A DNA stretch of 64,000 bases from Alphaproteobacteria bacterium (GCA_965228695.1 CBDDIB010000001.1:373893-437892), one strand, 5' to 3'; counted from the stretch's first letter, positions 22,933-62,749 are shown. The notes: generated by a model not told the origin, from the sequence alone. Numbers and translations: made by a program.

Positions 22933-22940
22933 CAAAACCG

Positions 22941-22968: not shown

Positions 22969-22994
22969 AATTCCTAATATTCAGGAGACAAGAA

Positions 22995-35212: not shown

Positions 35213-36534
35213 TAGACAGCGAGCCTTTGCTGGTCATCGGGCTCTTCGGCCTTTTTCTTCGGCGTGCCCCAGACATCTTCGGGCACCCGCGTTTCGAGGG
35301 AGACCTGTGGTGGTTCACCGAACCGTAGACAGGGCTCGGTCCCGGCGTCTTGCTCAAAGAGATCGCCTTTGGCGCGATCCGACTGCGTGAGAAAGCGGTG
35401 CCACATGATGACCTGCCCGCGCAGCGAGGCGCTGTTGTCCATCCGTTTTTTCCCGGACAGCAGCGCATGCGGATAGGAATGCGGCGTAAATCCGTTGGTG
35501 GTGAAGAAATAGGTCGGCGTGATCACCAGGAACCACTGATCGTCCAGCAGCTCGAACCGGGGAACGAACGCGTGGTGACGCACAAAGTCCACGCGCCCCT
35601 CTTCCTTCTTGCTGGTGATGACGTTGACCACGTCGGCGCTGGTCTTTTTCTTCGACGCTTCATAGGGGAATGTGCGCGTTTCATTGGCCCGAAGCGCCCT
35701 GAAATAAAACAGCTTGTTGTCCTTGTGCCAGCCCAGGTCTTCCCAGACCTGGTGCTTGAGTGCGTTTTTCAGCAGGAACGCGAAGTGGTTTTGTTCATCG
35801 AGGTCTTCGTGAAACGCGAGATAGCTCGTCTCGATGGCTTCGACCTGATCAAGATCGACAATATCGCGGCACGGTGATGTCCGCGGATCATGGAATGACC
35901 AGAACGATCCGCCGCGTATAACCCAGTCGAAGCGCGCGGGCTCATCGCCGTCAAGCAGGATCGCGGCGGCCTTCTTGCCGGTATGGGGTGTTGAGGCAAC
36001 GTAGATTTCCGGGGGCAACGTGATAGGCAGAATATTGACGAGCGCTTCCTCGCCGCCGCCAAGCGGCGGAACGTAGTAGCCAAAACCAGCCTTAGGAACT
36101 GTAAGGGCTGCGAGGCGGTCCACAGCATTACTGTCGAGAATGTCGCGTTCCTTGCTGAATCGAAGCCGGCGCTCGCCCTCTGTGAAACCGTTCGGCACCT
36201 CCTGCCAGTAAAAGGTTTCATCCGAGCGCCGGTAAAGGACGATAATCACGGGCAGGTTCGAACCGCGCCAGTAATCCAGGTCTTTATTTCTTAGAAGATA
36301 ACTGAAGCCCTGGTCATCTTCCGATGTATATATGCCCGACTCTGTTGCCTTCACCTGGACAGCAATCATCCGCGCTAGCGGCCGGCCATCATCCATCACC
36401 TCGGCAATACCGTCGATGCCGGCCTCGAGTCGTGAGCGGCCGTCAAACTGAAAGCCGATATTGAGAAACCGCAAGCGCGCTGCCGCCTCGCCGATTTCCC
36501 CGAGCATCTGGCTGGATGTAAGAATCTTCGACAT
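35212..36534 (-). CDS. DUF4365 (DREN) PD-(D/E)xK nuclease fused to APAZ domain
   Basis: GE.GE, GIDG, QVKAT nuclease motifs; C-terminal [20 protein letters not shown] motifs; TAATG overlap with Ago. Confidence 0.85.
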
Positions 36535-36771
36535 ATCTCCATCATAGAACAATCTAAGAACATTTGGTATCAGATTGTGCCTGCTACATGCCATGGTTGT
36601 GGGCAACTTACGACCTCGGCATGAGGTATGATCGCTGCACCGGGGTCGGGAGCCGCGTCTTCGCTATAAGGAAGCGAGAGAGAGTCCGGCCTGCTGGGGT
36701 TCCACCGGACATACCCGAAAAAACAAGAAGAACAGACAGCCTTCAACCAGCATCCTGCCTTTGACCCGCGT

Positions 36772-37893
36772 TCAGCGCGAACCCGTATCGGTGCGCCATC
36801 GGGAGTCGAGCGGTCCCCAAAGAATTTGATGAGGGTCGCGCCGCGCGGCCTCGATCTCTTTTGCGGTGACGGCATAGCGCAGGAAATTGCCCTCGTGGTC
36901 CTCAAGGCAGGTAAAAATTCCTCCGCTCTCATGCAGGATTTTCCTGGGATCGGCGTAGGTGCCGCGTCCGATCATCGTGGCAAGCCGTTCGGGATCGTGG
37001 TGCTCGTACAGGAATGGGTCGAAAGCGCGCGGCGTCTGCGTCTGCGCGATAACGGCGCCCAAGGGCTTGTTCCAGTAATACTGGACGCGCAGCGCATCTT
37101 CGTGAAGGACGGTGTGGTCGTAAAATATCCGCGCCACCAGCTCACCGAACTGGATGGGATGCAGCTTTTCGCAAATGATGTGCTGGAATCTATGAAGCCG
37201 GAACTGCCGATGGACGCCGCCGTCAAAGGCGCAAATAAGGCCGAGGTTGCCTGTCCGCAGCGCAGCTCCCAGCGTAATCAGATTGTCGAAGAAATCGAAC
37301 GCTTCGAACCTCGTGTCGCGCGTGTCGATCTCGACAATATAAAGCGAATAAGGCGGCCCGTAGAAGAATTCCGGGAACGGCGGATCGCCTAGATAGCATG
37401 AATGCATGTCTTTGCGCATCGCATAGGCGCGTTCGATCATGCCGAGATAGGCGATGCCCGGCATAAAGTCTTTCGGAACAACACTGTCCGGGACAGGATC
37501 ATCGCGCGTCCGGTGATCGTGGGAAGCGTGACCCTTTCGGCACAACAGCCAGAAGATTTTGCCGAGCCAGAGCGCAAGAAGTTCAGGATCAAGCTCCTGC
37601 ACAGCGGCAAAGGCATCGCCGGAACGCACGCGGCGCGAAATCTCCGATTCCAGGCGGCCAAAACGATGATGATTGCATTTCTCGCAAATATCGACCCTGA
37701 CGCTCTTGTAAGTCCTGCCGGCAAAGTTGGGGAGCGTCAGCCGCGCCGTTTCCAGCTTGTGATGTTTTTGCAGCCAGCGCGGAAAGATATGCTCCTGCGT
37801 CTTGGAAACCCTGCCGAACTTGCGCCCGCACAGCGGGCAGTGGGTTGCAATATCCCGCAGGGCCAAAACATCGCTTATCATCCGCAGGGACAT
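36772..37893 (-). CDS. HNH-like (treble-clef) nuclease domain protein
   Basis: CPLC..EHIFP.W..CEKCN N-terminal signature; 2-bp gap to upstream gene. Confidence 0.65.
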   Translation of the reverse strand: MSLRMISDVLALRDIATHCPLCGRKFGRVSKTQEHIFPRWLQKHHKLETARLTLPNFAGRTYKSVRVDICEKCNHHRFGRLESEISRRVRSGDAFAAVQELDPELLALWLGKIFWLLCRKGHASHDHRTRDDPVPDSVVPKDFMPGIAYLGMIERAYAMRKDMHSCYLGDPPFPEFFYGPPYSLYIVEIDTRDTRFEAFDFFDNLITLGAALRTGNLGLICAFDGGVHRQFRLHRFQHIICEKLHPIQFGELVARIFYDHTVLHEDALRVQYYWNKPLGAVIAQTQTPRAFDPFLYEHHDPERLATMIGRGTYADPRKILHESGGIFTCLEDHEGNFLRYAVTAKEIEAARRDPHQILWGPLDSRWRTDTGSR

Positions 37894-37895
37894 GA

Positions 37896-39278
37896 TCAGT
37901 CAGGCATCCCGTCAGTGGGGTCGAAATCGGATTCCCCGCCGCTGATGCCGGCAAACACGTCATCGTCTTCCCTGTATGACTGAATCGCGGCGACAACCGC
38001 CCTGTTGCTCTTAACGATCGCTTCAACCAGCTCTTTGAGATAAGCCGTCGTTTCAGCGGTGGCACCTATATAGCCGGCACGGATCAGGTCGAGAAAAGGC
38101 CCTTGCCGCAAGTAGCGGCCGGCCAGACTCTCAAAACTCACGCGGACCGCACCGCGCGGCCCTTTACATGACGGATCAGCCCGCTGCCGCTCAAAATGAT
38201 CTATCGGCATAACGATCCCGGCATTGCCGAGTGCGCCGCCACGCTTGACGAACTTGATATAGAAAACCTGCGAATTGAGACGGTACTCGTACGGACCAGG
38301 CGGATGTTGTTTTGCGAACTTGCGCATCCGTTTGATCTCGGAGTCGAGGTTGGCATCCGGGCGATAAACCCAGTCAGTATCCCGGTCCTTGCGCTTGTGA
38401 GGTTCAAGCATTTTGTACTGGACCATCACAATGTTCTGGCGCGTCGCATTGACATAGATGAGATCGACGCCGAAGACCTTTTCAAGCGGGCGGCGGTTGG
38501 CGGTGAAGACTTCAAGCCGTTCACGCCCCTTCTCGAACACGGCCCGGCCTGTGATGTCGCTGCCGGTCAATTCGTAGTCAGGGAATGTGCGGGCGTCGTG
38601 CTCGACGACGGAATCTTCCATGATGTTGACGCGGGCGAGCGCTGTGTCCTGGTTCCTGGCGAGTTCAAGCGAGACAGCCTGATCGCCGGGCGACAGGCCG
38701 AATGCGCGCAAGGCCGTGTGCACCGCATCTTCTTGGAAGGCATCCATGCTACGGAAATATTTGGGGGCTGAAAGCGACGCGACGGCCGCGCGCATAGCAC
38801 CGCGATTTGACTCGATGGCGGCGAGCTTCTCGACCAGATGAGCGCTGAGCTTTGGCGATAAAGCGATAACGGATTCGCGAGAATCCAGCCTATCACGAAG
38901 ATTGCGCGTATGGGCGTTGTCGGTGACAAGCTTGATAATTTCAGATTTTGACGACGGCTGGATATGCTGGGCGCGCTTGACCTTGATCCGCGATTCCAGC
39001 GTTGTGATGGCGCTGCGCGAACTGGCCAGCCCGAAATAAACTTCACTGCCGTCGTCGCCCTTGCCGATGACGAGGCAGGCAGTCGGTACGCGAACCTTCT
39101 CGAACAGCTCGTGCGACCGTGCGATTGTGAACTCGTTGGCGCCGCGTCGTGACTCACGCAGGCGCGACCATTCCTCACTGTCAAACTGAAACACCACGAG
39201 GGGCTTCTTCTGCACGAGTCGTTTCAGGTTTTCGAGCCACTCATCTGACTTCTTTTTTCTCTTCTTCGTTTGTTTCAT
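37896..39278 (-). CDS. putative PD-(D/E)xK nuclease
   Basis: ED..EHD, LE..GVDLIY, VMVQYK restriction-like motifs; abuts helicase stop. Confidence 0.65.
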   Translation of the reverse strand: MKQTKKRKKKSDEWLENLKRLVQKKPLVVFQFDSEEWSRLRESRRGANEFTIARSHELFEKVRVPTACLVIGKGDDGSEVYFGLASSRSAITTLESRIKVKRAQHIQPSSKSEIIKLVTDNAHTRNLRDRLDSRESVIALSPKLSAHLVEKLAAIESNRGAMRAAVASLSAPKYFRSMDAFQEDAVHTALRAFGLSPGDQAVSLELARNQDTALARVNIMEDSVVEHDARTFPDYELTGSDITGRAVFEKGRERLEVFTANRRPLEKVFGVDLIYVNATRQNIVMVQYKMLEPHKRKDRDTDWVYRPDANLDSEIKRMRKFAKQHPPGPYEYRLNSQVFYIKFVKRGGALGNAGIVMPIDHFERQRADPSCKGPRGAVRVSFESLAGRYLRQGPFLDLIRAGYIGATAETTAYLKELVEAIVKSNRAVVAAIQSYREDDDVFAGISGGESDFDPTDGMPD

Positions 39279-40724
39279 TCACACTCCTGGGTTCAGTACC
39301 GGATTTGTCGAGATAATCGTCAACGACCGCGCCCCGCGCGTAAGCGCGACATACAGTTCTTTTTTCGAAAGCGATGTCGCGTCCAGAACAATGCCGTGAT
39401 CGAATTCCAGCCCTTTGACCAGCAGCGTCGTGCCGATCAGCCTGCGCCGCCCAACGGGACGGCCCTTGTGGCGGAATTCACCGTGATACTTCTCGGCGGC
39501 TTCCGCTAGAGAAAGCTCCGGGTGCAGCACATGTTTTCCGAGCACCCCCAACGCCCGGTAGAACAGGTCGGCGCGGACGACTTCGACGCCTGCGGTCTGT
39601 CTAAGCGCCTGCAGAAACCCCGTCATGGCGGCGCTGCCGGGCGCGACCAGATAGGCATTGGCATTGCGGGCCGCTTCGGGGTTCCGGGTATTGGCCCGGA
39701 TATTGACCTGCTCGCCGCGAACCGTTCCAGCGGGAAGATTCTGCTCAACGGCGGTCATGCATCGTTTGGCGAAGACAACGACCTCCTTCAGGCGTGCCGT
39801 GTCGGTTCGCGCCCGCTCGACCTTCCGAATGAACGAGAACAGGTCTTTCCCCTCGACTTCTTCGATCGAGGAAAAGCGGCCACCAAGATTCCGCGATAGC
39901 TTATGGCACTTGGCCTTGTACTCTTGGCTGCCCCTGTGAATGGCGATCACGGTATGGGCGCGGTCGCACTGGAAATAACGGCAGGCGTTGCCCTGCGACT
40001 GAATAAGCGCCTGCGGATCGGCATTGGCATGCGTGAAGGTAACAGCGGCCGGACGATCCGCGTTCAGATCGACAGGCTGGTCCTGCTCAAGGCGTGTACG
40101 AACATTGCGCAGCCATGTGCCGAAATCGCCCGCGCCGGCCTGTATCCAGCGGTGGGGCACGTCAAGGGCGCCAAGCTGTTCAAAGCGTCCTTCAACGTCG
40201 CGCTCCCAATCTATGGGGCTCTGACCGTCAAAATCGAAGATACCTTGCAGCGGATCGCCAAGTATCCGGCACGGCAGGTCGCGCGCCAGTTTGAGAACGA
40301 TGCCGTGCTGGGCGGCCGAACAATCCTGGTATTCATCGACATAGAGCCCGTCATAGGACGCGCGGACAATCCTGCGGATAAACGCATGATCGAGCAGACC
40401 CGCACAGACTTCGTATAGCGCGTTCCACTGCTCGTTATCCGCGGGGCGCTCATCAGCCCAGCCACATGTACCTGAATAAGAAAGCGAAAGCCGCAATGAC
40501 CAGCTTGCGATCGTATCAATGCGATAGAGCCTGTCACTGACGCCAAGGGCGCGCATTTTGCGCCGCAAGGCGTTCACACCCGCATAGGTGTGGGTCAGGA
40601 TCAGTTGCCGTCCGGCGCTCCGGGCTGTCGACTCCGCGATCAGGTGGGTTTTGCCGTACCCGGCCGGAGCCACGACATAGCCGGCCCCTTGGTGCGCGGC
40701 AAGGATGGCGGACAGCTCACACAT
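39279..40724 (-). CDS. UvrD-like SF1 helicase (GajB-like)
   Basis: APAGYGKT, VDEYQD, GDPLQ.IF, KGLEFD, LYVALTRG; overlaps OLD nuclease stop. Confidence 0.88.
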   Translation of the reverse strand: MCELSAILAAHQGAGYVVAPAGYGKTHLIAESTARSAGRQLILTHTYAGVNALRRKMRALGVSDRLYRIDTIASWSLRLSLSYSGTCGWADERPADNEQWNALYEVCAGLLDHAFIRRIVRASYDGLYVDEYQDCSAAQHGIVLKLARDLPCRILGDPLQGIFDFDGQSPIDWERDVEGRFEQLGALDVPHRWIQAGAGDFGTWLRNVRTRLEQDQPVDLNADRPAAVTFTHANADPQALIQSQGNACRYFQCDRAHTVIAIHRGSQEYKAKCHKLSRNLGGRFSSIEEVEGKDLFSFIRKVERARTDTARLKEVVVFAKRCMTAVEQNLPAGTVRGEQVNIRANTRNPEAARNANAYLVAPGSAAMTGFLQALRQTAGVEVVRADLFYRALGVLGKHVLHPELSLAEAAEKYHGEFRHKGRPVGRRRLIGTTLLVKGLEFDHGIVLDATSLSKKELYVALTRGARSLTIISTNPVLNPGV

Positions 40725-42429
40725 TGTCGATCCAGCCCCGCAAGCTGGTAAGCTGCCGGACCAGATCGCTTTGACGGATGGCGTTGTCAGCCAAGTGGTC
40801 GGAAACCGCTGCCGCCCAGTCGCGGCCCCAGCTTTGCCGCTTGAACCAGTCGCTGGCCTTGGCCGCCCTGCCGAGCGCGATGCGAATTTCCGGCGTGTCG
40901 GCCCACGCCGCAAAATCACGATCAAAACCTTCGCCAAACTGGGTCCGCATCTGATTCAGAAGGCGGGCATCGTCATTCCAGATGGCACGGGCTGCGTGGA
41001 AGGATGCCGTGACGCCCGCCCACGGAAGATCCGCGAACACGCGTTCTTCTATCGACAGCGCGCCGTCCCACTTCGCGACCGTGATACCTGCATTACGCAA
41101 GGCTTGCGCATCGGCATCGGAGAAATCCCCCGGCGCATCGGAATCGGCCAGAACGGCGACATCGTAGCCAAGCGCTTTCAGGTTCTCGGCGATCTCCCTG
41201 ATCTTGCTCACACCAACCGCGTCGAACAACGCAACACCGCGATAGGCGAAGGAATCCTTGTTTTCGGACAAGGTCCAATGATCGTCCAGGCCGCGTAGAA
41301 AACCGACCTCGGTAGCGCCTTCGCAAACGATGATCTTGGGCGCGAGAAACGCTTCGGCACCTGAACGTATTTTGCCCTGTATGGAATCCGCGATGGCAGG
41401 CTTGTTTGCCGCCACCACGTCAATGCGTCCGCCATCGCAATGGACGATATGCAGGTCATCGACAGTCAGTTCGCGCAACACGACGGGCGAGTGGGTGGTC
41501 AGGAAATATTGCCCCGTATCGTCTTCTTTCAAATGTTGCAGGAGCCGGGCAATGCGGTGAGGCTCAAGCCCCACCTCGACCTCATCGAACAGCGTGATAT
41601 GCGGCGCACGCAGCGCTTGTTTCTGCAAACCGGTCGTCAGCATACGCTTGGAACCGAGTCCAAGTTGCCTGAGTGGCATGTCACCGTCATGCAGGGCAAG
41701 GCCAGCCATCCGTACGTTGATGGCGTCGGAATCTAGATGCGCCTTGTAGGATGCGGCAACGTTGACGCCAAGCGCGCGAGCGGTCGTCTCGGCCGCTGCC
41801 GCTACATCGTCAAAGCCTGCCAAATCCTCCACCCGCCGGGCTTCCAGGGCGGATTTGGCGGCACGCGCTGCATCGGCCAGTGACGACGAAATATTTTCGG
41901 TTTCGGTGAGCTGGCTCAGAATCGAGCCGCGCGACCATGTCAAGTGGCGGTCGGAAATCGCGCCAATCAGGCTGACCGACACCCTGGCCCGATCGTTCGC
42001 TCTGAACGGGACGCCTTCATCCTCATCGTTCTTGATGACGGACCATGACGGCTCAAGGTCATCCGCCACTGCAAGGCGGACCCGCAGCGCATCTTCGAGG
42101 CCGTCACCGGGATCGTCAGCGCGAGCAAGCGTTATAGCATTCCAGCCGCACAGCGCGTGACCGTATTTTTCAAGGTCGCGGAACGCATCCGGCAGATCGC
42201 CGAGAACGGCTTCTATCGTGATTGGATTCTCCGGATTGCATAAATGAAAGTCGGCATCATCAAACGACAGGTTCCACTGTGGATGGAAGACCCGGCGCAG
42301 CGCCTCAAGGATTGTCGATTTGGTCGAATCACCGCGCCCAATCAGACACAGAACATTGCGGTCCGGTACCGGCCAGTCGAGTTCGCGGATACCCCGGAAG
42401 TTTTCTACCGATAGATGGCGTATGCGCAT
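40717..42429 (-). CDS. OLD-family ATP-dependent nuclease, ABC ATPase + TOPRIM (GajA-like)
   Basis: ENFRGI, GRGDSTKSTIL, LGLGS, DEVEVGLEP, TTHSP, VCEGATE, ADSD. Confidence 0.9.
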   Translation of the reverse strand: MRIRHLSVENFRGIRELDWPVPDRNVLCLIGRGDSTKSTILEALRRVFHPQWNLSFDDADFHLCNPENPITIEAVLGDLPDAFRDLEKYGHALCGWNAITLARADDPGDGLEDALRVRLAVADDLEPSWSVIKNDEDEGVPFRANDRARVSVSLIGAISDRHLTWSRGSILSQLTETENISSSLADAARAAKSALEARRVEDLAGFDDVAAAAETTARALGVNVAASYKAHLDSDAINVRMAGLALHDGDMPLRQLGLGSKRMLTTGLQKQALRAPHITLFDEVEVGLEPHRIARLLQHLKEDDTGQYFLTTHSPVVLRELTVDDLHIVHCDGGRIDVVAANKPAIADSIQGKIRSGAEAFLAPKIIVCEGATEVGFLRGLDDHWTLSENKDSFAYRGVALFDAVGVSKIREIAENLKALGYDVAVLADSDAPGDFSDADAQALRNAGITVAKWDGALSIEERVFADLPWAGVTASFHAARAIWNDDARLLNQMRTQFGEGFDRDFAAWADTPEIRIALGRAAKASDWFKRQSWGRDWAAAVSDHLADNAIRQSDLVRQLTSLRGWIDNV

Positions 42430-42437: not shown

Positions 42438-44747
42438 CTACGGAATTGTGTCGAAGCGTACGTAGAACTCCTTGTCCCCGTCAGTGATCTGAAATGCCGG
42501 CTCGAGAGCTTTTGGCACGGGGATGAATATTCGGTTCTTCGTTACGATCGTGGTTGTAGGGAACATCGAGCCGCCTGTCTGGTCGGTCTCAAGAGGCGAT
42601 TTTAGTTCAATGTCATAGTAAAGGCTGAGTTCTCCTGTTGCGTCCGTGAATATATAGATGACGCGGTGCGCCCCCCAGATCAGTTTGGTTGTGTGCGGCC
42701 AGCGCAGAAACTCCCCTTCTCTTTTGATGATACGGTCCGAGAGCGCAAGGAACATTTGGAAATTGTTGAGCTTCGGGTGCTCGGCTGCAACGGTGAGGAC
42801 TTTCTTGTCACTTTGCAGGTCATCCCGCATGAGCGGCGGCGAGGCCTCAAATTCGTTGGCTGGCGGCGCACCATCGGCCGGTCCGATGATGTCGGGGAAT
42901 TCTTCTTCGACGCTGCCGACCTGTTCTTTGCTGACTTGTTGCCGCTGTACGGAAGTGCGGCTTCTGGAAGTCCTGAGAACTTCGGAAAAATCCGCGTTGC
43001 CGGCAAGATAGTCAGCCAGCAACGATTCGATAGCCCCGTAATCGCCCTCCTGAAGGCGGAACAGCTCCTTGTTCTCCTTCAGCCTTTTGAACAGGGCGTC
43101 GCGGCCCTGCTTGGTCGAGGACGGCACGTGATCCCGGATATGGGGATAGACATGCTCGCGCACGAAATCCTTCATGAAACCGTCGAACACATCGCGGGCG
43201 GCGGTATAGCATTCGAGAACGATCTTCACGGACTGGATATCGCGGGCGATCGACAGGAGCAGCGCGATGTCCCTTTTCTCGGCGTGAAAGGTGACGCCAT
43301 GGCTGATCGTGGCGAAAGCCGCATCCACGTCCGGCATGAGATAGTCATCAAGAAGAATGCCGCGCAGCCGGACAAGAAACATGGCCTCTTCGAACGTAAG
43401 CTGCGTGGCGGCAATCCTGTCAACGATGACGTGCTCTGGCACCTGCTCCAGATGAACGATCTCATTCAGGTAGCGAAGCTGAAGCTTGCGGCGCGGATTG
43501 GCCTGGCTGACATGAAACAGATTGGCCTGATCGGTTCCAAATCGTTTCAGGATCGTGCTGTCCTGACCCACATAGAAATGTTTGGGCTTGTTCGGCTCGT
43601 AGGTCTGCACCTCGCCGAGCGGTATCATCGTGTCGGCGGGCAACACGGAGATTTTGACCTTATGCGCAAGCGCAAACTGGCCGTGCGAGAGGATATATTG
43701 CTGGAACTGCTGGTTCGCGTCGGCCGCGTCGGTCTGCGCAATGTCGGCGGACGCCTCGGCCTCGATCAGCTCAACAAGGTTCGCAACATGCTGGATGCTG
43801 TCCCGGCTAAGGGCCTCCCGTCCTGCGGTTGGGTGAAGGATGTCGAGATTGACAAATCCGCCCAGCCCGTAGTGGCCGGATACCGGGATCGGTGCGAGGC
43901 CGAACAGATTGCGGAATCCGTGCGTGGGTCCGCTCTGCTGAACCAGGAATACTTCGCCTTTGATGGGTACGCCGTTCAGCGAGATGTCAGTGAGCCGCGC
44001 CAGCATCCGGCTTTGGGCGTTGATTGAGACTTGCAGCGTCCCGGCAAACTCGCCGCGCGATACTGCGCGAGATGATACCTGCTCAAAGCCCGCGGCCTTT
44101 CCGGCAAGCGTGTCCGCAAAGCCCTGCTGGCTGATAAGCTGTCCGTTCACCAAAACGGGAACCGGCAGGAACTGCACATACTGTTTCAGGTATTCGCAGG
44201 TTGCGGCTTCATCGATCGGATAGGCGGGGTCGAGTTCAGCATCAATCAACGTCCCCGGCTCGCGGTCATCGGCGATGCGTTCGAGATCGATGCAGTCCTG
44301 CGCGATCTTGAGATCCTCGCGCCGCGCCGTGCTGATGAGCGTCGTATCGGAGTCGATGTTACGGGTTTCCACGCGCAGCGCCGTGCAGACGCCGAAATTC
44401 GCCATCGCGCCGATCCCGAACGTTCCAATGACGCCGGACTGCTGGGCAAGTTCGGATTTCTTGCCGCTCGAACCGGCCTTCCAGAAATTGTTCTTAAGGA
44501 CATCCTCGGCCATGCCGATGCCGTCATCGCGCACGGTCAGCCGGTTCGCCTCGACGGTAATTTCGATTTTGCGTTCGGCAGCCACAAGTCCTTGCGCCGT
44601 GCAGCGCATGAGAATTGCGTCATAGGCGTTCTGCACGTTTTCGCGAAGGAAGGCTTTGGGAGAGTCGTAAATCTCCGATGACAGGATTTCGAGAATCCTG
44701 CTTGTCTCAACATCGAATGCGATCTGTTCCTTGGCTGGCGCCGTCAT
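42438..44747 (-). CDS. Hsp90-like GHKL ATPase with long uncharacterised C-terminal region
   Basis: IYDSPKAFLRENVQNAYDA, DDGIGM, IGTFGIG, GT motifs. Confidence 0.85.
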   Translation of the reverse strand: MTAPAKEQIAFDVETSRILEILSSEIYDSPKAFLRENVQNAYDAILMRCTAQGLVAAERKIEITVEANRLTVRDDGIGMAEDVLKNNFWKAGSSGKKSELAQQSGVIGTFGIGAMANFGVCTALRVETRNIDSDTTLISTARREDLKIAQDCIDLERIADDREPGTLIDAELDPAYPIDEAATCEYLKQYVQFLPVPVLVNGQLISQQGFADTLAGKAAGFEQVSSRAVSRGEFAGTLQVSINAQSRMLARLTDISLNGVPIKGEVFLVQQSGPTHGFRNLFGLAPIPVSGHYGLGGFVNLDILHPTAGREALSRDSIQHVANLVELIEAEASADIAQTDAADANQQFQQYILSHGQFALAHKVKISVLPADTMIPLGEVQTYEPNKPKHFYVGQDSTILKRFGTDQANLFHVSQANPRRKLQLRYLNEIVHLEQVPEHVIVDRIAATQLTFEEAMFLVRLRGILLDDYLMPDVDAAFATISHGVTFHAEKRDIALLLSIARDIQSVKIVLECYTAARDVFDGFMKDFVREHVYPHIRDHVPSSTKQGRDALFKRLKENKELFRLQEGDYGAIESLLADYLAGNADFSEVLRTSRSRTSVQRQQVSKEQVGSVEEEFPDIIGPADGAPPANEFEASPPLMRDDLQSDKKVLTVAAEHPKLNNFQMFLALSDRIIKREGEFLRWPHTTKLIWGAHRVIYIFTDATGELSLYYDIELKSPLETDQTGGSMFPTTTIVTKNRIFIPVPKALEPAFQITDGDKEFYVRFDTIP

Positions 44748-46195
44748 TACTTCAACCTCGCCGCATATTTGTCACGTATCTCAATGACCGCGCCGTCGGC
44801 TGCACCGGCGATCAGCGGCAGCTTCAACAGCTCTGCAAGGCGCTGCCGATTGTCGGCAGCCCACAAGGCATCCATAAGTGCAATCGCTTCGGCCGTGCTT
44901 TCGGGCGGGTCGAACGTACCTGCGATCCCGACTTGGTCATCAAGACGGATCAGGCAGTCAAGGAGCACGCGGCGAGCCAGCGGCTCCGCCGGCGCCAGTG
45001 GCGAGAGGATTTGCACGGCGGAACCATAATCGCCGTTATCATACGCGGCCTGGGCCTGCGTCAGCAGGACCGTGTTGCGGTCCGGTCTGACGAATGGTTC
45101 CGGTGGCGGATCGAATGAAAAATCCAGATAGCCGGTCTTGTTAGGCGGCAATGAACGAGCACCCCAAATAGGCATACGCAAATTGTCATTGTGCATTTCG
45201 CGAACATGCAAACGGCCCTTCCTGTTCGGGACATCAAGTTCCACGACATTATAGGCGCGGCCATGGCGGAAGGCGGCGCCGCCGCACAGCGTACCGGCGC
45301 TGATAACGGTGATGCGGCGATCGGGACCGTGACGGAAACGCGTATCAAGAAACTGCGGCTTGTGTTGATGACCGTGGAACCCAAGACTGAACCCGCCATC
45401 GACGAGATTCTGGACAATATCGGGGTCCATATAATCAACCTCCGCCGGCGGTCCTTCCGTGTTGTGATGCCAGACGGCAATGCGCAGATGCTCCTGTGCA
45501 CTTGATAACTGGCGTAGCCGCTTTCCTGCATAGGCGATGCAATCGGGGTGAATAGCGCCTTGGCGGTTCAAGAGGTCGTTATTGTGGCAACTGCAAAATC
45601 CGACCACGACGATCTCAAGGTCCGGAAGCTCGAAGACATCAAGCTGGCTGTCCGGTTCTAGAGAATAGGCGCGCTGCCCGTCATAAAAGCGGCCGTAAAA
45701 ATCGACGAACGCCGCAAAGCGCTGGCGGTACATGTCCCAGTCGGTAATCTCAAAGAGAGAAAAGTCATCCCATGACCAGCGCATCGGCGAATCCGGCTTG
45801 AAGAGTTCGGCGACAAGCGCCTTGTCGGTGCCGGCGGTCATCTCGATTGACGTGAGGGACTCGCGGAAATGGTGGTCGCTTACATCGTGATTGCCGGGGA
45901 TAAGAATGACACGCCGCTTGTCACCTCCCACAAAGCGGTCGGTAAGTTCGTTAAGGAAGGCTAACGCTTCATCGTATTGCTTTCGCAGTGCCGCTTCTGC
46001 GTCTGCCGCACCATGCCTGACGCCCTGAATGATATCGCCACTAACAATTATGAGTTTGGGCGGTTCAATGCGCGGGTCGTCATGTAACGTGTATCTGTCG
46101 CGGTCCCTTTCGAGAGAGTCGAGCAACACCTGGTTGCCGATCGGGTTTGCCGGATCGCGGTGCAGATCGGATATGTGGAGCACACTGAGCGTCAT
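44747..46195 (-). CDS. calcineurin-like metallophosphoesterase with C-terminal helical (TPR-like) region
   Basis: HISDLH, SGD, PGNHD, WHH, HGHQH motifs; 1-bp overlap with the ATPase start. Confidence 0.88.
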   Translation of the reverse strand: MTLSVLHISDLHRDPANPIGNQVLLDSLERDRDRYTLHDDPRIEPPKLIIVSGDIIQGVRHGAADAEAALRKQYDEALAFLNELTDRFVGGDKRRVILIPGNHDVSDHHFRESLTSIEMTAGTDKALVAELFKPDSPMRWSWDDFSLFEITDWDMYRQRFAAFVDFYGRFYDGQRAYSLEPDSQLDVFELPDLEIVVVGFCSCHNNDLLNRQGAIHPDCIAYAGKRLRQLSSAQEHLRIAVWHHNTEGPPAEVDYMDPDIVQNLVDGGFSLGFHGHQHKPQFLDTRFRHGPDRRITVISAGTLCGGAAFRHGRAYNVVELDVPNRKGRLHVREMHNDNLRMPIWGARSLPPNKTGYLDFSFDPPPEPFVRPDRNTVLLTQAQAAYDNGDYGSAVQILSPLAPAEPLARRVLLDCLIRLDDQVGIAGTFDPPESTAEAIALMDALWAADNRQRLAELLKLPLIAGAADGAVIEIRDKYAARLK

Positions 46196-49360: not shown

Positions 49361-49669
49361 CTAACTGTCGCGCCGGTTCCAGACCAGGAACGCCGCCCCT
49401 TCCTCCTCGAACAGCGCCGCCCGGATTGGCTCGGGAAAGCTCGGGTCGTCGAGCTGGACGCTGAGATAGTCCCGTGGTTCGTCGCCGTTGGTCTTGGCCT
49501 TCCAGGCGGCGCCGAGCTCGGCACGACCGGCATAGACCCGGAAGTCCGGGGCACCTTCGCTCTTCTTCGCATCATTGGCGACGATCCTGGCCTTGACGTT
49601 GACCGTCAGGGTGCGGATCGTCCCTGTGTAGCCGTCCTTGCCGGTTGTAAAACTTCCGATCGTAGCCAT
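49361..49669 (-). CDS. DUF736 family protein
   Basis: MATIGSF..G.IRTL, APDFRV, GAAW, YLSVQLDDPSF. Confidence 0.9.
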   Translation of the reverse strand: MATIGSFTTGKDGYTGTIRTLTVNVKARIVANDAKKSEGAPDFRVYAGRAELGAAWKAKTNGDEPRDYLSVQLDDPSFPEPIRAALFEEEGAAFLVWNRRDS

Positions 49670-49672
49670 CGT

Positions 49673-49930
49673 TCACGTCTCCTTTGGTTGGGTTGTAGTT
49701 GAGGATGGGCGCGTGTCGGAAAGCTCTTTGCGCGCCCGCTTGAAGCCGGGATCGGCGTTGATGAACGCCTCCAGCATGAAAGGAATGAGGTCGGCGACAC
49801 TCTCCTTCTGGCCGTAGGCCCGGCGGTAGATTTCGGCATAATCGTTCAGCGCCGACTTCAGATCGGCGTCGGCGGTGAAGGTGATCTTCACCGCCTCGCG
49901 GTCGGGGAGCTTGTCGAGTTTCAGGGTCAT
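49673..49930 (-). CDS. DUF2274 family protein
   Basis: LKL.KLPDR..VKIT, L.DYA.IY..YG, LIP.ML..F..D..F. Confidence 0.88.
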   Translation of the reverse strand: MTLKLDKLPDREAVKITFTADADLKSALNDYAEIYRRAYGQKESVADLIPFMLEAFINADPGFKRARKELSDTRPSSTTTQPKET

Positions 49931-51246
49931 CGGATCACTCCCAGGTCGCGATAGGGCCGGAGCACCAGATCCTTGTTGACGATGATGCGGAGCGGCCAGC
50001 CGGGACGAATGGTGATGGTTGGCTGGATGTTGAGGTTGCGCTCGGTGATGCGCTGGCCGACCTGACTGGCGCTGTCTTGAGACGACTCGCGGATCGCCTC
50101 GACGAGGTCATCCTCTTCATCGCCAAACGTCAGCTCGGTGCCAACGCCAAGCAGGGTCGAGAGCACGATGCCTTTCAGGAGCCGCCAGGTGTGGAAATCG
50201 ACCTCGTCCTCGAGCCCGGCATAGCCGGCGGTGTCGGTCGCGGGCAGGTTTTCGATCACCATGGAGGAGCCGTCCGGCATGATGATCCGCTGCCAGACGA
50301 CAAGCGCGCGGTCCTGGCCAAAGGCGATGACGCTGTCGTAGGTGCCAATCAAACGCGACCCCTGCGGGATCAGCAGATAGCGGCCGGAGACCGTGTCGTA
50401 GATATTCTCCGTGATCTGAGCAGTGACGCGACCCGGCAGATCGGAGTTGATGCCGGTGAGAAGGCTGGCGGAAATGACCGTACCCGCCATCACCTGGTAA
50501 GGCGACGCCGGGTCCTGCAGCGCGTGCGGATTATAAATGTTCGCATCGACGCCCTGGTCGAGGAAGTCGAGCTTGCGGCCTTGCAGGTTCTGGTCGTTCT
50601 GGCGGTCAAGCACCAGCAGACCGCGTGGGTCACCGCCGCCGGCGACTTCAAAGGGATTGCGGTCGGCCGGCGCGGCGCCGGGCGCAGTGTGTATTCCCGC
50701 CCCCGAGACATCTGCCTGTGTGGCCTCGGCCGTGCCGGAGGTGAGCTGAAAGAATACGCCCGCTTCGCGGCCTTGTTGAGCGAGTCGAGCTTGGCGAATG
50801 CGTTCGGCGCGGGCCGCATCATCCTCCGGGCTCGGACGGAACGGCAGCGCCGGTGCCGGTTCGAGTCCCAAGTCCCGTTCGGCGCCGACAACGGCGGGCC
50901 CGATATCACCGGGCAGCGGCGGACCAAGCTGAACGGGTGGCCGCGGGATATCGCTGTAACGTCGCGGCAGGGCTTCGAGCCCATCGGGAGTCGGATTGTT
51001 GTCGGTCCGGTAGAGCTCACGCCCGTTATCGTTGCGGTCGAACAGACGCGGCGGATCGAGCGCGAAGATGGTCGCGCCGAGGATCAACAGCAGTCCGGTA
51101 CCGGAGAGAGCGATCAACACCCGCCGGTTGATCCGCGTGACCGGTCGTGGCGTGGCGCGCAACGCCAACTCTTCCGGATCGATCTTCGGGGCGGCCGAAG
51201 CCGGCGGTTCGGGACCCGACGGGTCGTCTCGGCGCTCATTCATCAT
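49927..51246 (-). CDS. trbI: conjugal transfer protein TrbI (VirB10)
   Basis: SPYQVMAGTVI.ASL.TGINSDLPG, IPQGSRLIG, NIQPTITIRPG. Confidence 0.95.
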   Translation of the reverse strand: MMNERRDDPSGPEPPASAAPKIDPEELALRATPRPVTRINRRVLIALSGTGLLLILGATIFALDPPRLFDRNDNGRELYRTDNNPTPDGLEALPRRYSDIPRPPVQLGPPLPGDIGPAVVGAERDLGLEPAPALPFRPSPEDDAARAERIRQARLAQQGREAGVFFQLTSGTAEATQADVSGAGIHTAPGAAPADRNPFEVAGGGDPRGLLVLDRQNDQNLQGRKLDFLDQGVDANIYNPHALQDPASPYQVMAGTVISASLLTGINSDLPGRVTAQITENIYDTVSGRYLLIPQGSRLIGTYDSVIAFGQDRALVVWQRIIMPDGSSMVIENLPATDTAGYAGLEDEVDFHTWRLLKGIVLSTLLGVGTELTFGDEEDDLVEAIRESSQDSASQVGQRITERNLNIQPTITIRPGWPLRIIVNKDLVLRPYRDLGVIR

Positions 51247-52295
51247 CGGCGATCACCCACGTCGAATACGTCTTTGTCACTCGCGCTCAAGGCGTGCGTT
51301 TGTTCACGGCTTGATACGGCCGGCCGGCCATCGGTGCGGGTGATGCGCACCACCAGCTGGGGATCCTCGCCAAGGCGGAGCTCGGCGGCGGCGAAGAGCC
51401 GGTCGACGATGTAAAAGCGGCCGCGGACCCGGTAGTTGACGAGCTGGTTCTCACCGTCCGGTCCGACAACGAAGAGCGGCGGCGCCTCGCCCTGGTCGAG
51501 ACGGGCTGGAAACTGGATGTAGACCTTGTGGGTGTCGTCGAAGACGCGCACCGGCCGCCAGGACGGCGTGTCGCCCCTGACGGCATAGCGGAAGCGCAGC
51601 TTGTCGATATCGAGCCCGCTGTCAATGACGCGCTCTGCGGCTTCCTCGGCCGCCGCGTTGCGGCGCGTGAGAGCGAGGAGTTCGTCGCGAGGATAGTGCC
51701 AGGAGACCGACGCCATATAGGTCTCGGGTGTGCTGGTGAGCTCCAGGTGATAGGCGCGCCGGTCGGTGATAATGACGAGGTTAGTCCGCAGATCCTCGGC
51801 GATGGGCTTTACCAGCACATGGGCGCGCGCGTTGTCCCCAGACCCGCTTACCGTGTCGCCGATCACCCAGCGGACGGTGTCGCCGGCCGAGACGGCGACG
51901 ATTTTTTCGCCGGGCTGGAGCGCGATGTCGCTGACATTCTCCGGCGCAGTGTAGAGCTGATAGAGCGCGCCTTCCGTATAGGGATAGACCTGGATGGCGT
52001 TGACGTAGCCGTCCGCTGTCGGCTCGACCTTGGCGGCTTCGTTCGCGTCGATAACTCGATCTTCCGGTGGTCGCTCATCTTCCCCGCGTGGCGCTAGCTC
52101 ACCGGGCAGCCGCTTCAACTGACCCGGCAAGGGGAGCGGCTCGGGTACGGTCACGACCTGGACGGGACGCGGCGGCTCGGCCGTCAGGGCGGCCGCGTTG
52201 AAGTCCTCTGCGTCATAACTGATCTCGAGCGGTAATTGCTTGGTAGCGCAGGCAGCCAGAAAGACGGGCACTGCGAGGATGAGTAGTTTCTTCAT
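51243..52295 (-). CDS. trbG: conjugal transfer protein TrbG (VirB9)
   Basis: Lipobox LAAC, NAIQVYPY.EGALYQ, AGDTVRW, TNL.I.TDRR.Y, VNYRV. Confidence 0.95.
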   Translation of the reverse strand: MKKLLILAVPVFLAACATKQLPLEISYDAEDFNAAALTAEPPRPVQVVTVPEPLPLPGQLKRLPGELAPRGEDERPPEDRVIDANEAAKVEPTADGYVNAIQVYPYTEGALYQLYTAPENVSDIALQPGEKIVAVSAGDTVRWVIGDTVSGSGDNARAHVLVKPIAEDLRTNLVIITDRRAYHLELTSTPETYMASVSWHYPRDELLALTRRNAAAEEAAERVIDSGLDIDKLRFRYAVRGDTPSWRPVRVFDDTHKVYIQFPARLDQGEAPPLFVVGPDGENQLVNYRVRGRFYIVDRLFAAAELRLGEDPQLVVRITRTDGRPAVSSREQTHALSASDKDVFDVGDRR

Positions 52296-52987
52296 GGGGT
52301 ATCTCCCGAGATGAGGTCGCGGCTCCAATTGAGCGCGTGGACGTAAATGCCGAGCGGGTTCTTCCTGAGAACCTCTTCGTTGCGCGGGCGCTGGAGCACG
52401 ATGGAGAGGACGGCGGTGTAACGGGTGGTGTCGGCGAGGACCCCGTTTTCGAAAGACTGCTCGCGCCAGCGCACATCGAAGCTGTCGCCGGATGATCGCA
52501 CGACACTGGTCACCTCGACGGTGATAGTGCGCTGACCGACCCGGGAGAACGGATCGTTCTCACGCGCATAGTCGTTGAGGCTGTTGGCAGCGCGGTCGGT
52601 GGCGTAGTCGTAGGCGCGCAGCCAGTTCTGCCGCACGACGATCGGGTCGATCGAGAGCGAGCGGACATTCTCGATGAAACGCGCCAGATGATAGGCGACC
52701 TGCGCGTCGGTCGGCTCATAGGCGGCAATCGCCGGGCCGACAGCACGGGTCTGCCCAAGCGTGTCAATCTCGACGACATAGGGCGTGATGGTGCTGCGCC
52801 CGGCTTGCCAGACGACGCCCCCCGACAAACCGATGGCGAGCGCCAGGCAGCCAAAGGCCATGAAGCGCCAATTGCGCGCCTGGACGCGCGCCGAGCCGAT
52901 GCGCTCGTCCCAGACCTGGGCCGCCTTCTGATAGGGCGTCACCGGCTCGGGGGTTTCGCCATAGGTCGTGGTCGGTCGTTTGAACAT
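52292..52987 (-). CDS. trbF: conjugal transfer protein TrbF (VirB8)
   Basis: TPYQKAAQVWDERIGSARVQA.NW, NPLGIYV. Confidence 0.95.
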   Translation of the reverse strand: MFKRPTTTYGETPEPVTPYQKAAQVWDERIGSARVQARNWRFMAFGCLALAIGLSGGVVWQAGRSTITPYVVEIDTLGQTRAVGPAIAAYEPTDAQVAYHLARFIENVRSLSIDPIVVRQNWLRAYDYATDRAANSLNDYARENDPFSRVGQRTITVEVTSVVRSSGDSFDVRWREQSFENGVLADTTRYTAVLSIVLQRPRNEEVLRKNPLGIYVHALNWSRDLISGDTP

Positions 52988-52997
52988 CAATCGTCCC

Positions 52998-54332
52998 TCA
53001 GTCATCGTCTCTTAGTCGGGGATTTTCGCCGGAGGCCGGGCGGTCGCCATCGCGGATCGTGTGGGCCGTCACGGTCGCGCCTTCACGCAGCCGCTGTTCT
53101 CGCCGCAGCTTGTGCGCCCAGTCGGGCGCGCTGCTTGCCGCGGCCGCGGCGCCGGTCGACGCCTCACCGCCGCTGGGACGCGTACCGCCCGTCGCGGTGA
53201 AAGCGCCGCGCTGACCGTCTGCAAAAGATTGCCGCGCGCCCGATGTCGCGCGTCCCGCAACGCTGCGAACGCCCTGACCGACAGCACCGGCGCCGGCGCG
53301 GGCGACGCCGGCCGCCCCCGCCGCAACGCCTGCCGCGCCAGAGGCGCCGGAGGTCGCGCGCGCCAAGCTGTAGGCACCGCTCGCCCCGCCAGCCATGGAC
53401 GATGCCGCGCGGGTCGCAGCGCCTGCGCCTACACCGAGAGCCCGCGCACCGCCCATCGCTACGCCGGCCGCTGCCGCCCCTCCTATGGCGAGCCCGGCGG
53501 CGGAACCGACCGCGGCGCCCGCGCCGAGTTGCGGCGCACCGGAGACCAGGCCGGCGGCGATGCCAGGTCCGAAGATGCCAAGCATGAAAATCGCCAGCGC
53601 GCCGAGGACGGTCGAGAGCGCCTGTTCGATGGTGATCTCGTCGCCCGCAAAGGACGCGGCGAACGATCCGAACAGCGTGGAGCCAATGCCGACGATGACG
53701 GCGAGCACCATCAGCTTGATGCCGGCCGCGACCACGTTGCCGAGCACCCGCTCCGCAAGAAACGCCGTCTTGCCCCAGAGCGCGAAGGGAACGAGGACGA
53801 AGCCCGCGAGTGTCGTCAGCTTGAACTCGAGAATGGTGATGAAGAGCTGGATGGCGAGAATGAAGAAAGCGAGCAGCACGATGATCCACGCCACCATCAG
53901 CACCGCGATCTGAACGAAGTTCTCGAAGAAGGCGATCGGCCCGATTAGCTCTTTCATCTCTCTCAGAAGCGGATCGGCGGCGACAAAGCCCGTGTTGGCG
54001 ACGAAGCCCGGCCGCATCAGGTCGTCGGCCGTGATCGGAGAATTGCTCGCCCGCAACCCTAGTCCCGCAAACGAGTCAAAGATGACATCGGCGAGGAAGG
54101 AGAAGTTGTTCAGGATGAACGCGAAGGCGCCGACATAGAGCACCTTCTTGATGAGAGCGGGAATAACCGACTTGTCGTCGGAGAGTGCCCAGAACAAGCC
54201 GGCGAGCGTGATGTCGATGCCGATCAGGATCGTCGTCAGGAACGCAACGTCCGGCCCGAGGAATCCGAAGCCGGAGTCGATGTATCTGACGAAAGTCTCC
54301 GTGAACTGATCGATGACGCCGACATCATCCAT
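52998..54332 (-). CDS. trbL: conjugal transfer protein TrbL (VirB6)
   Basis: YIDSGFG, EFKLTTLAGF, GLVSGAPQLG, Ala/Gly-rich tail. Confidence 0.95.
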   Translation of the reverse strand: MDDVGVIDQFTETFVRYIDSGFGFLGPDVAFLTTILIGIDITLAGLFWALSDDKSVIPALIKKVLYVGAFAFILNNFSFLADVIFDSFAGLGLRASNSPITADDLMRPGFVANTGFVAADPLLREMKELIGPIAFFENFVQIAVLMVAWIIVLLAFFILAIQLFITILEFKLTTLAGFVLVPFALWGKTAFLAERVLGNVVAAGIKLMVLAVIVGIGSTLFGSFAASFAGDEITIEQALSTVLGALAIFMLGIFGPGIAAGLVSGAPQLGAGAAVGSAAGLAIGGAAAAGVAMGGARALGVGAGAATRAASSMAGGASGAYSLARATSGASGAAGVAAGAAGVARAGAGAVGQGVRSVAGRATSGARQSFADGQRGAFTATGGTRPSGGEASTGAAAAASSAPDWAHKLRREQRLREGATVTAHTIRDGDRPASGENPRLRDDD

Positions 54333-54350
54333 TGCGCGTATCCCTAAGCC

Positions 54351-58253: not shown

Positions 58254-58534
58254 CCGAGATGCCCCTTGTGGCGAATGTGCCGGACCAGCACTTCCATGAA
58301 GCTCGGGTCTTTCTTGGCGGCATAGACAGCAGCGCCATGGCCGACGATCCACACGATGAGTCCCGCCAGCCAGAGCTGAAGACCCAAGCCCAACGCGGCG
58401 GCGAGCGTGCCGTTGAAGATTGCCACTCCCCGCGGCGCACCGCCCATCAGGATCGGTTCGGTCAGCGCCCGGTGCAGCGGGATCTCGAAGCCCTCGATGT
58501 GACCGGCAACGCTCATGCGATGAGAGCCCGTCAT
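58247..58534 (-). CDS. trbD: conjugal transfer protein TrbD (VirB3)
   Basis: PLHRALTEPILMGGAPR, KKDP.F. Confidence 0.92.
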   Translation of the reverse strand: MTGSHRMSVAGHIEGFEIPLHRALTEPILMGGAPRGVAIFNGTLAAALGLGLQLWLAGLIVWIVGHGAAVYAAKKDPSFMEVLVRHIRHKGHLGC

Positions 58535-58881: not shown

Positions 58882-58897
58882 GGGCGTCTCCTTGAAA

Positions 58898-60392: not shown

Positions 60393-60406
60393 GGGCAGCG
60401 CCTCCT

Positions 60407-62461: not shown

Positions 62462-62749
62462 CGATCTCTTGCCGCTTTGTTCGAGCAAAACGCCCGTTGC
62501 AGTCGGCAAAAGATCGCGGTGAAATCAGCTTTTAATCAATGAAGTAACTTCCAAGGTGATCCAAGTGTTCATAAATGAAGAAGCAAGCGCCAGTTAAGGC
62601 AAAGATCAGCAAAGATCATCCGGACTTATTTTTAGAGGACGGAACCGCTATGATCTTGGATGGAGTTGGATCGAAGCGATGGCGTGTCGCGAAAAGCGCG
62701 CAAACGCTGTCTGATGGGGCATTCGCGGGGGCTGAAAAGGAGATGATCC

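Follow-up and report, generated by a model that had tools for sequence, protein, structure and literature searches.

A mobile two-gene unit of a calcineurin-like phosphoesterase and an Hsp90 paralogue as a probable defence system

Here we describe a pair of genes in a 64,000-nucleotide stretch of DNA from an Alphaproteobacteria bacterium (GCA_965228695.1, CBDDIB010000001.1:373893-437892; the whole stretch is called the window below), the first of which encodes a calcineurin-like metallophosphoesterase (MPE) and the second an Hsp90-type ATPase. Our analysis shows that the two genes are inherited as a unit across distant bacterial phyla. The pair is probably a defence system, and on balance we favour its reading as a mobile two-gene immune module, carried as cargo by an integrative conjugative element (ICE), in which the Hsp90-like protein serves as a switch and the phosphoesterase as the effector. 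Hsp90 is among the best-studied chaperones, and no experimentally tested immune system based on it came up in our literature searches; the validation of metallophosphatase effectors in bacterial defence dates only from 2026.

The MPE gene (P0002; window positions 44747-46195, minus strand) encodes a protein of 482 residues that ends in a helical tail, and the Hsp90-like gene (P0001; 42438-44747, minus strand) encodes 769 residues. The TAA stop codon of the former (44747-44749, minus strand) and the ATG start codon of the latter have one base in common at the junction TAATG, a 1-nt overlap. The pair is flanked by an XhoI restriction endonuclease (REase; PF04555, 3.8e-103) and its methylase on one side, and by GajA (4.3e-196) and GajB (2.5e-154) of a Gabija system on the other. 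The initial annotation of this locus, made from the DNA alone, had given both open reading frames (ORFs) and their coordinates, the overlap, the calcineurin-like motifs, the Hsp90-type GHKL domain and the REase and Gabija flanks, all of which we recovered. Because all of these genes are tightly packed, with gaps of only a few bases between them, adjacency within the window is weak as evidence. A scan for promoters and terminators was uninformative, returning two promoter-like sites against 5.1 expected.

Linkage, distribution and genomic context

With the Hsp90-like protein or its alignment as bait, we retrieved 109 loci, 24 of them from species genomes, five from viral contigs and 80 from metagenomes, and considered 85 of them informative, in that the GHKL N-terminus was present together with at least 1500 nt of upstream sequence (five loci without the GHKL N-terminus and 19 with short upstream sequence were excluded). 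An MPE homologue of at least 400 residues lies directly upstream of the Hsp90-like gene in 81 of the 85, a truncated remnant in the other four (L015, L046, L065 and L058), and the MPE is absent from none. Loci beyond the window repeat the abutting layout, with 0-88 nt between the end of the MPE match and the GHKL match; the MPE matches of L007 and L038 are each broken across three frames. Distance matrices of the two proteins are congruent (Mantel r 0.969 for 75 non-identical pairs, a value reached in 0 of 999 permutations), which, at the level of sequence comparison, shows inheritance as a unit rather than interaction, and is expected for adjacent genes that move together. These data support the two genes as one conserved module, as had been proposed from the window alone, with an MPE or its remnant upstream in 85/85 loci.

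We also observed Hsp90-like genes that are intact beside an MPE that is truncated or reduced to its tail (L015, 6127-7980; L046 and L065, ~3747-3995; L058; L113, 7537-7995). In L015, most of the MPE position is occupied by a 518-aa ORF without a Pfam family, possibly a mobile-element gene. Such loci suggest recurrent inactivation of a costly effector. A fusion of the two proteins, P0172, was considered as a Rosetta-stone case and rejected, being a single sequence on one contig whose nearest 119 listed relatives are unfused.

The Hsp90-like family comprises 177 clusters at 50% identity (E <=1e-30), nearly all of 750-815 aa. Its length stays at ~765-785 aa down to 21% identity, and the 150 best cluster representatives do not exceed 813 aa. 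Judged by record titles, the hosts belong to Alpha- and Gammaproteobacteria, Acidobacteriota, Nitrospira, Dehalococcoidia, Rhodothermales, Planctomycetota and Bacteroidota, and cultured hosts include Pseudomonas, Rhizobium, Methylocystis and Chelativorans. Neither 40 relatives of the window's host nor 400 other genomes of the phylum yielded the protein, and the gene had no match among 50,697 deposited phage genomes. Identity nevertheless approaches 70% between members from distant phyla, and we therefore conclude that the family has spread horizontally. Of 72,556 plasmids searched, four carry the Hsp90-like gene, all of them conjugative; on pPUV-3, a megaplasmid of Pseudomonas aeruginosa, the two genes carry the annotations 'metallophosphoesterase' and 'ATP-binding protein' and have an ABC-3C system next to them.

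In the window, the pair is part of a run of defence-type genes composed of a short prokaryotic Argonaute (pAgo) with its REase-APAZ partner (33755-36606), two genes encoding P0007 and P0008, Gabija, the pair itself and the XhoI restriction-modification (R-M) system. The run stands between an integrase (28975-30135) and a Trb-type conjugation apparatus (49927-62509) and is the cargo region of an ICE. The genes that flank the pair vary from locus to locus, and the locus in Chelativorans intermedius (L001) alone has the window's XhoI pair together with P0007/P0008. Examining ORFs within 6.5 kb of the pair at 21 genome loci, we detected recognised defence genes at 11 (R-M types I and II, Gabija, Dsr2, ThsB-TIR, GmrSD, a PifA-like gene, ABC-3C and PDC-S36) and mobile-element genes only (integrases, relaxases, recombinases or transposases) at five more, which together make 16/21. 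Prophage genes lie beside the pair in two of the four viral-contig loci examined. The ABC-3C system adjoins the pair both in Oceanibaculum pacificum (L013, 10611-14271) and on pPUV-3 (L112, 708-4359).

A setting of this kind would also suit an addiction or stabilisation module of the toxin-antitoxin type, or a module for competition between conjugative elements, in which the Hsp90-like protein restrains a toxic phosphoesterase that is released when the element is lost or a competing element enters. In L003, L004, L016, L018 and L021 the immediate neighbours of the pair are integrases, relaxases, serine recombinases or transposases, the four plasmid matches are all conjugative megaplasmids, the window copy stands between an integrase and a Trb type IV secretion system (T4SS), and the lack of matches in the deposited phage genomes points the same way. 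Since defence systems commonly ride the same mobile elements, context cannot separate addiction from defence. We regard addiction as rather unlikely, however, given the classical anti-phage genes adjacent at 11/21 loci and an effector whose nearest named relatives are validated anti-phage proteins.

The phosphoesterase, the Hsp90 paralogue and their predicted docking

The catalytic core of the MPE (residues 1-~360; 45116-46195, minus strand), the predicted effector, matches PF00149 over residues 4-280 (E 3e-10; 41.3 bits against a cut-off of 21.5). All five metal-binding and catalytic motifs (D10/H12, D54, N102/H103, H243/H244 and H274/H276/H278) are invariant in 32/32 aligned homologues, and with its DxH, GD, GNH[DE], H and GHxH motifs and a score above the gathering threshold the protein belongs to the PF00149 superfamily. 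A structural model with a mean predicted local distance difference test score (pLDDT) of 84.5 shows the core extending to about residue 360, followed by eight helices between residues 373 and 481 (block pLDDT mostly 86-96). Searches of PDB sequences with the MPE or its profile gave no match. Structural comparison of the core (model residues 1-364) with VIA-align places Bacillus subtilis YydB first (Z 26.0), then SMPDL3A (Z 20.3) and further SMPDL3A/3B chains (Z ~19-20), followed by Rv0805 (19.0), GpdQ (18.6), purple acid phosphatases (~17) and Mre11/SbcD (~16; 16.2-16.7). Across the 18,950 NCBIfam families, the two that most MPE members match are DS9_1_antiphage (32/32 homologues) and DS8_antiphage (30/32), all far below the equivalog cut-offs. 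Because Mre11/SbcD reach a Z of only ~16 against 26 for YydB and 20 for SMPDL3A, the models make a nuclease role less likely than nucleotide hydrolysis.

The helical tail of the MPE (residues 373-482; 44750-45079, minus strand), predicted by co-folding to be an adaptor that docks on the Hsp90-like protein, varies more among close homologues than any other part of the enzyme, at an identity of 0.56 against 0.68 for the core (domain identities were calculated with every second homologue aligned, that is 60 of 120 GHKL and 53 of 120 MPE sequences, the window protein included). R408, P431, E436 and K476 of the tail are invariant. The tail had been described as helical and TPR-like; the eight helices of the model agree with the first part of this description, and the second goes back to a sub-threshold Pfam match to ANAPC3 (E 0.0091), with which a TPR is not established.

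The N-terminal GHKL ATPase domain of the Hsp90-like protein (residues 1-215; 44103-44747, minus strand) matches PF13589 (HATPase_c_3) over residues 34-146 (E 1.3e-10) and the NCBIfam model 'HSP90 family protein' over residues 8-205 (9.6e-25), and sequence and profile searches of the PDB listed only Hsp90-family N-domains, the best being TRAP1 (5.7e-23). E36, N40, D43, D74, G76, G78 and the glycine-rich loops (G105-G119) are invariant in 56/56 family members. A model built from these 56 members (mean pLDDT 84.2) retrieved full-length Hsp90 at the top of the Foldseek results, over 620-690 columns, with TRAP1 first (1.6e-22, 625 columns), followed by HtpG, Hsc82 and GRP94. With VIA-align, full-length Hsp90 chains cover model residues 1 to 537-550 at Z 21-24 (top 24.3; for example 8eob_B, Z 23.8, and 2cg9_A, Z 21.8), whereas constructs of the N-terminal and middle domains stop at model residues 437-439 (for example 4ivg, Z 22.6). 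By its predicted structure, the region from residue 1 to ~550 is a complete Hsp90 fold with ATPase, middle and C-terminal (dimerisation) domains. The middle-domain equivalent (residues 216-440; 43428-44102, minus strand), delimited by these N-terminal and middle-domain alignments, holds a loop, T307-A308-G309-R310, that is invariant in 56/56 members, and R310 may be the equivalent of the Hsp90 catalytic arginine that contacts the ATP γ-phosphate, an assignment made by position and not by residue-by-residue alignment. The C-terminal domain (CTD) equivalent spans residues 441-556 (43080-43427, minus strand) on the evidence of the full-length alignments.

Beyond the Hsp90 fold, a low-confidence linker (residues 557-599; 42951-43079, minus strand), with pLDDT <50 at residues 557-571 and 594-599 and among the protein's most variable stretches, leads into an extra β-rich C-terminal domain (residues 600-769; 42441-42950, minus strand), a candidate sensor or regulatory domain. 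It is modelled with strands between residues 601 and 768 (block pLDDT 71-92), lies outside all the listed ranges aligned to Hsp90, and matches no Pfam family; searches of the ESM Atlas with residues 215-769 and 596-769 returned only unnamed clusters or nothing usable. The domain is well conserved, with W691 invariant in 56/56 members and Y711 and P743 each kept in 55/56. Conservation is even along the chain, the C-terminal 170 aa being conserved as well as the ATPase domain, with an identity of 0.75 among close homologues. The ~500 aa that had been reported as unknown sequence after the GHKL domain are therefore mostly Hsp90 middle and C-terminal domains by fold, and the description holds for residues ~600-769, which have no Hsp90 counterpart. 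NCBIfam equivalog scores, obtained over residues 8-205 only, are far from those of the housekeeping chaperones (HtpG NF003555, 68.2 against 371 bits; HSP90 family NF010683, 87.1 against 455 bits), and the protein is a divergent Hsp90 paralogue, not an HtpG orthologue.

We noted in addition that a search of BFVD with the model retrieved giant-virus Hsp90 first and then phage RIIA proteins (E ~1e-15, TM ~0.3), and that PHROG RIIA families match the N-domain at 1e-7. RIIA is a phage protein known for countering exclusion, and the resemblance, although it may be limited to the shared GHKL domain, connects a host module with it.

To obtain a model of the interface, we co-folded the full Hsp90-like protein with the tail of the MPE (residues 350-482) from user-made alignments. 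The median score was 0.66 (runs at 0.66, 0.76 and 0.66), and the best of three controls scored 0.00; in calibration, 58 of 80 solved complexes attained the mark, as did 2 of 110 mismatched pairs, a rate that is only rough for user-made alignments. The runs share at least 46% of contacts, and the partner pLDDT is at least 80. In the predicted interface, MPE residues 369-386, 405-413 and 432-436 meet residues 446-474, 494 and 518 of the Hsp90-like protein. Helix 452-469, early in the CTD equivalent, forms the centre of this interface, and the ranges include the invariant R408 of the MPE and Y469 of the Hsp90-like protein, which is at least 90% conserved. The co-fold proposed in the initial annotation thus favours binding, at the level of a model, and supports a predicted docking in which the MPE tail contacts helix 452-469. 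In HtpG, an exposed amphipathic helix of the C-terminal domain has been proposed as a client-binding site; if helix 452-469 is its equivalent, the MPE tail would occupy the client site.

Eukaryotic PP5, a TPR-phosphatase activated by Hsp90, had been offered as an analogy. The likeness extends to a metallophosphatase-superfamily enzyme with a helical domain and an Hsp90 partner, and the analogy fails in its particulars. The MPE is SMPDL3A/YydB-like, with no PPP-type phosphatase among the 50 matches listed; its helical domain is C-terminal, and that of PP5 is N-terminal. The predicted contact is the internal helix 452-469 of the CTD equivalent rather than the C-terminus of the Hsp90-like protein, and an EEVD-type C-terminal peptide is present in 0/56 members.

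A complete Hsp90 fold, and strong conservation of both proteins over their whole length, would also be expected of a chaperone and its client in a physiological role, with the Hsp90 paralogue folding or regulating a CpdA-like phosphodiesterase of nucleotide signalling or phosphate metabolism. The MPE compares well in structure with Rv0805 and GpdQ (Z 18.6-19.0), and homologues are labelled 'molecular chaperone HtpG' and '3',5'-cyclic AMP phosphodiesterase CpdA' in their sources, although such labels are names and not functional tests. The very patchy distribution, with no copy found in the 40 relatives or the 400 genomes of the phylum, the horizontal spread evident from near-70% identity across distant phyla, and the embedding of the pair in defence islands and mobile elements all speak against a physiological chaperone-client pair, which we consider very unlikely.

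We give the same low standing to a DNA-targeting system, in which an Mre11/SbcD-like nuclease would be loaded on foreign DNA by a MORC- or MutL-like GHKL clamp: Mre11, SbcD and Mre11:Rad50 chains do appear among the structural matches (Z 16.2-16.7), one A2 member of the MPE family matches TIGR00619 sbcD (E 9e-4), the N-domain has weak PADLOC matches to REase_II and TmtA, and GHKL ATPases act in R-M-linked systems and in the DNase Tiamat, according to the part of the Tiamat preprint available to us (10.64898/2026.09.30.754977), but YydB and SMPDL3A rank clearly above the nucleases, the top matches of the GHKL protein are all Hsp90 chaperones (GyrB and Topo VI-B rank only 47th and 50th, over no more than the first 339-353 residues), MutL and Topo VI-B equivalogs reach 17-20 bits where the HSP90 family model scores 87, and Pfam detects no DNA-binding domain.

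Relation to known systems and proposed mechanism

Nicastro, Burroughs, Iyer and Aravind reportedly predicted conflict proteins combining Hsp90-like and Calcineurin-CE domains in 2023. The Tiamat preprint, in its accessible text, credits to Nicastro et al. 2023 putative Hsp90-like defence proteins with HD or calcineurin-like phosphoesterase effectors (10.64898/2026.09.30.754977), and in the available part of a preprint on ParA, HSP90- or HSP70-like NTPases are said to be able to take the place of STAND NTPases (10.64898/2026.10.19.760177). Judged by this second-hand description, the predicted class and the pair have in common a calcineurin-type effector, an Hsp90-type ATPase proposed as a STAND analogue, and conflict contexts. 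Unlike the class so described, whose effectors are joined to the N-terminus of the Hsp90-like protein, the pair has an unfused effector, in its own gene in 81/85 loci, and a C-terminal region that is conserved and of fixed length. We conclude that the pair is a split-gene, conserved-sensor variant of the class predicted in 2023, as far as the second-hand description sets it apart. The initial annotation had called the module new, a claim that does not survive the 2023 prediction as relayed in the available text of the Tiamat preprint (10.64898/2026.09.30.754977), or the validation of metallophosphatase effectors in DS-8 and DS-9, as given in the part of that study open to us (PMC13092281). No experimental study of the pair was found in our literature searches, and Nicastro et al. 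2023 and Mordret et al. 2026, with their supplements, may list the family; RefSeq annotation gives it generic names only.

The closest validated relatives of the effector are found in DS-8 (metallophosphatase-NACHT) and DS-9 (metallophosphatase with HAD), which, in the accessible portion of the study describing them, protect Escherichia coli from phages in a manner that needs the phosphatase active site; SMPDL3A is reported there as a structural neighbour of DS-8 (PMC13092281). The DS-9-type system PUA-Cal-HAD depletes dNTPs, and its Calcineurin-CE domain turns dNDP into dNMP and can cleave NAD+, as stated in the part of the preprint that could be consulted (10.64898/2026.01.15.699771). The MPE has an effector domain homologous to these, with DS9_1 profile positions 195-471 (of 486) matching residues 4-301 (E 1e-14), and has the SMPDL3A-like fold in common with DS-8. 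In contrast to DS-9, it has no PUA domain before motif I, the match starting at profile position 195 and residue 4, and its partner is of Hsp90 type and not HAD, with no HAD domain in either immediate neighbour; the only HAD-type match in the window is a P-type ATPase (6998-9472), far from the pair. In contrast to DS-8, a ~990-aa protein with a fused NACHT NTPase, it has 482 aa without a P-loop domain. Its equivalog scores are 54.3 against a cut-off of 420 for DS9_1 and 26 against 790 for DS8, and because it has neither a PUA domain nor a HAD or NACHT partner, the protein belongs to neither DS-8 nor DS-9.

The best structural match to the MPE core, B. subtilis YydB (PDB 9a6c_B, from an integrative YydD-YydB model; root-mean-square deviation 3.5 over 300 aligned residues), is with 481 aa close to the MPE in length, and PDB 9a6c models it in complex with YydD, whose gene we take to be a neighbour of yydB. 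Identity is 18%, and the alignment covers chain residues 1-317 and not the tails. A GajA query does not match YydD, and YydD is not among the matches listed for the Hsp90-like model.

The Hsp90-like protein resembles the chaperones HtpG, TRAP1, Hsc82 and GRP94 in N-domain sequence, ATP motifs and, in the predicted model, a three-domain fold to ~550, and differs from them at 13-19% identity and in its extra ~170-aa C-terminal domain, its obligate phosphoesterase partner and its patchy, mobile distribution. With Tiamat (TmtA, a single-protein GHL-ATPase/DNase) it has in common an N-terminal Hsp90-like ATPase, matched weakly by PADLOC over residues 18-119 (21.6 bits); unlike Tiamat, it has no DUF3684 and no NOV_C/PD-(D/E)xK nuclease in Pfam searches. 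The available text of the Tiamat preprint itself assigns Hsp90-like antiphage proteins a place outside the Tiamat clade (10.64898/2026.09.30.754977).

In the mechanism that we propose for a mobile immune module, the MPE would be the effector, in a clade with DS-9A (PUA-Cal) and DS-8, most likely acting on free nucleotides or dinucleotides (dNTP/dNDP, NTP, NAD+-type), and the Hsp90 paralogue with its added C-terminal domain would be the switch or sensor, in the role that STAND/NACHT ATPases have elsewhere. In the resting state, the MPE tail would sit on helix 452-469 and the enzyme would be restrained. An infection cue would then set off an ATP-dependent movement of the clamp, by which the phosphoesterase is freed or activated, nucleotide pools would drop, and replication of the invader would stop, by abortive infection or growth arrest. 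Obligate linkage, intact catalytic sites, the Hsp90 fold, the kinship of the effector and the genomic context are observations, and we infer substrate, trigger, direction of regulation and phenotype. The earlier suggestion of a sensor ATPase that switches on a phosphoesterase effector keeps its logic as the best reading, and its nuclease version is less likely than nucleotide hydrolysis.

Several results weigh against this immune reading. Neither protein has a model in PADLOC v2, where the best scores are 21.6 bits to TmtA and 20.1 bits to PDC-S60, and 5 of the 21 genome loci (L007, which is short, L010, L014, L015 and L017) have no clear defence or mobile-element signal. The sole fused form, P0172, is an aberrant singleton and lends no solid Rosetta-stone support. 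The co-fold, which on the MPE side covers the tail (residues 350-482), is silent on inhibition or activation. MPE folds also include nucleases and cyclic-nucleotide phosphodiesterases such as Rv0805 and GpdQ. Lastly, the putative sensing parts are not hypervariable, the extra domain being at 0.75 identity with no entropy peak after residue 630; this even conservation argues against direct recognition of fast-evolving phage proteins, and a conserved cue, for example a host-derived signal or a generic folding client, fits better.

A more specific form of the immune reading, which we put forward tentatively, is that the Hsp90 paralogue is itself an immune receptor, with a phage protein or a folding disturbance caused by the phage as its client, and that capture of the client and ATP-driven clamp closure free the MPE tail from helix 452-469. 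If true, this would amount to a chaperone-derived pattern-recognition switch, in an obligate two-gene unit that has a conserved C-terminal domain of its own, that releases a nucleotide-degrading enzyme, and it would set the pair apart from the fused, hypervariable Hsp90-effector proteins predicted in 2023. The pair poses the question of whether a chaperone fold can take the place of STAND/NACHT ATPases in switching a nucleotide-depleting immune effector, and of which signal its conserved sensor would read. The family is suited to testing, having two genes of constant length, at least 177 clusters, cultured hosts, intact catalytic sites and a concrete predicted interface.

Other genes of the island and the window

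The short pAgo gene of the island (33755-35212, minus strand) matches PADLOC pAgo_I (E 3e-174), and its partner (35212-36606, minus strand) matches Aga_REase-PNTD1-PNTD2 (E 2e-179) and Pfam DUF4365, with a REase-APAZ architecture; together (33755-36606) they are a SPARDA-like short pAgo system. The abutting genes that follow (36772-39278, minus strand) encode P0007, of 460 aa and without a family, and P0008, of 373 aa, whose only match is a sub-threshold one to the HNH_5 zinc ribbon. They recur in the same order, at 84-91% identity, in C. intermedius (L001, 13934-16428), between Gabija and the pAgo partner, and are a candidate further two-gene defence module.

The Gabija slot, at 39279-42429 in the window and 10319-13893 in L001, holds a different subtype in an otherwise syntenic island. 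The best PADLOC models are PDLC00100 (GajA) and PDLC00149 (GajB) in L001 and PDLC04168 and PDLC04173 in the window, with no tblastn match at 1e-5, which looks like a cassette swap inside a conserved island. The longest ORF for the window's GajB (39279-40937, minus strand) has a TTG start and overlaps GajA by ~220 nt, and PADLOC matches it only from residue 82 onwards; translation probably starts downstream of this TTG.

No tRNA was found in the window. The ICE genes comprise the tyrosine integrase (28975-30135, plus strand) and those at 32568-33131 and 49361-62509 (both minus strand). Beside the integrase, they encode a ParB_N protein, a DUF736 protein and the Trb-type T4SS, with TrbI, TrbG/CagX, a VirB8-like protein, TrbL, TrbE, a TrbB-like ATPase and the coupling protein TraG. 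The G+C content changes at ~46 kb, from 54-60% on the left to 61-67% on the right. Positions 1-28300 form a copper/redox cluster with the P-type ATPase mentioned above (6998-9472), which has YHS/HMBD domains, a multicopper oxidase (22929-24674) and CopB (24680-25405), together with a cupredoxin, ScsC/DsbA-like proteins, cytochromes c and a two-component system (18806-20933).

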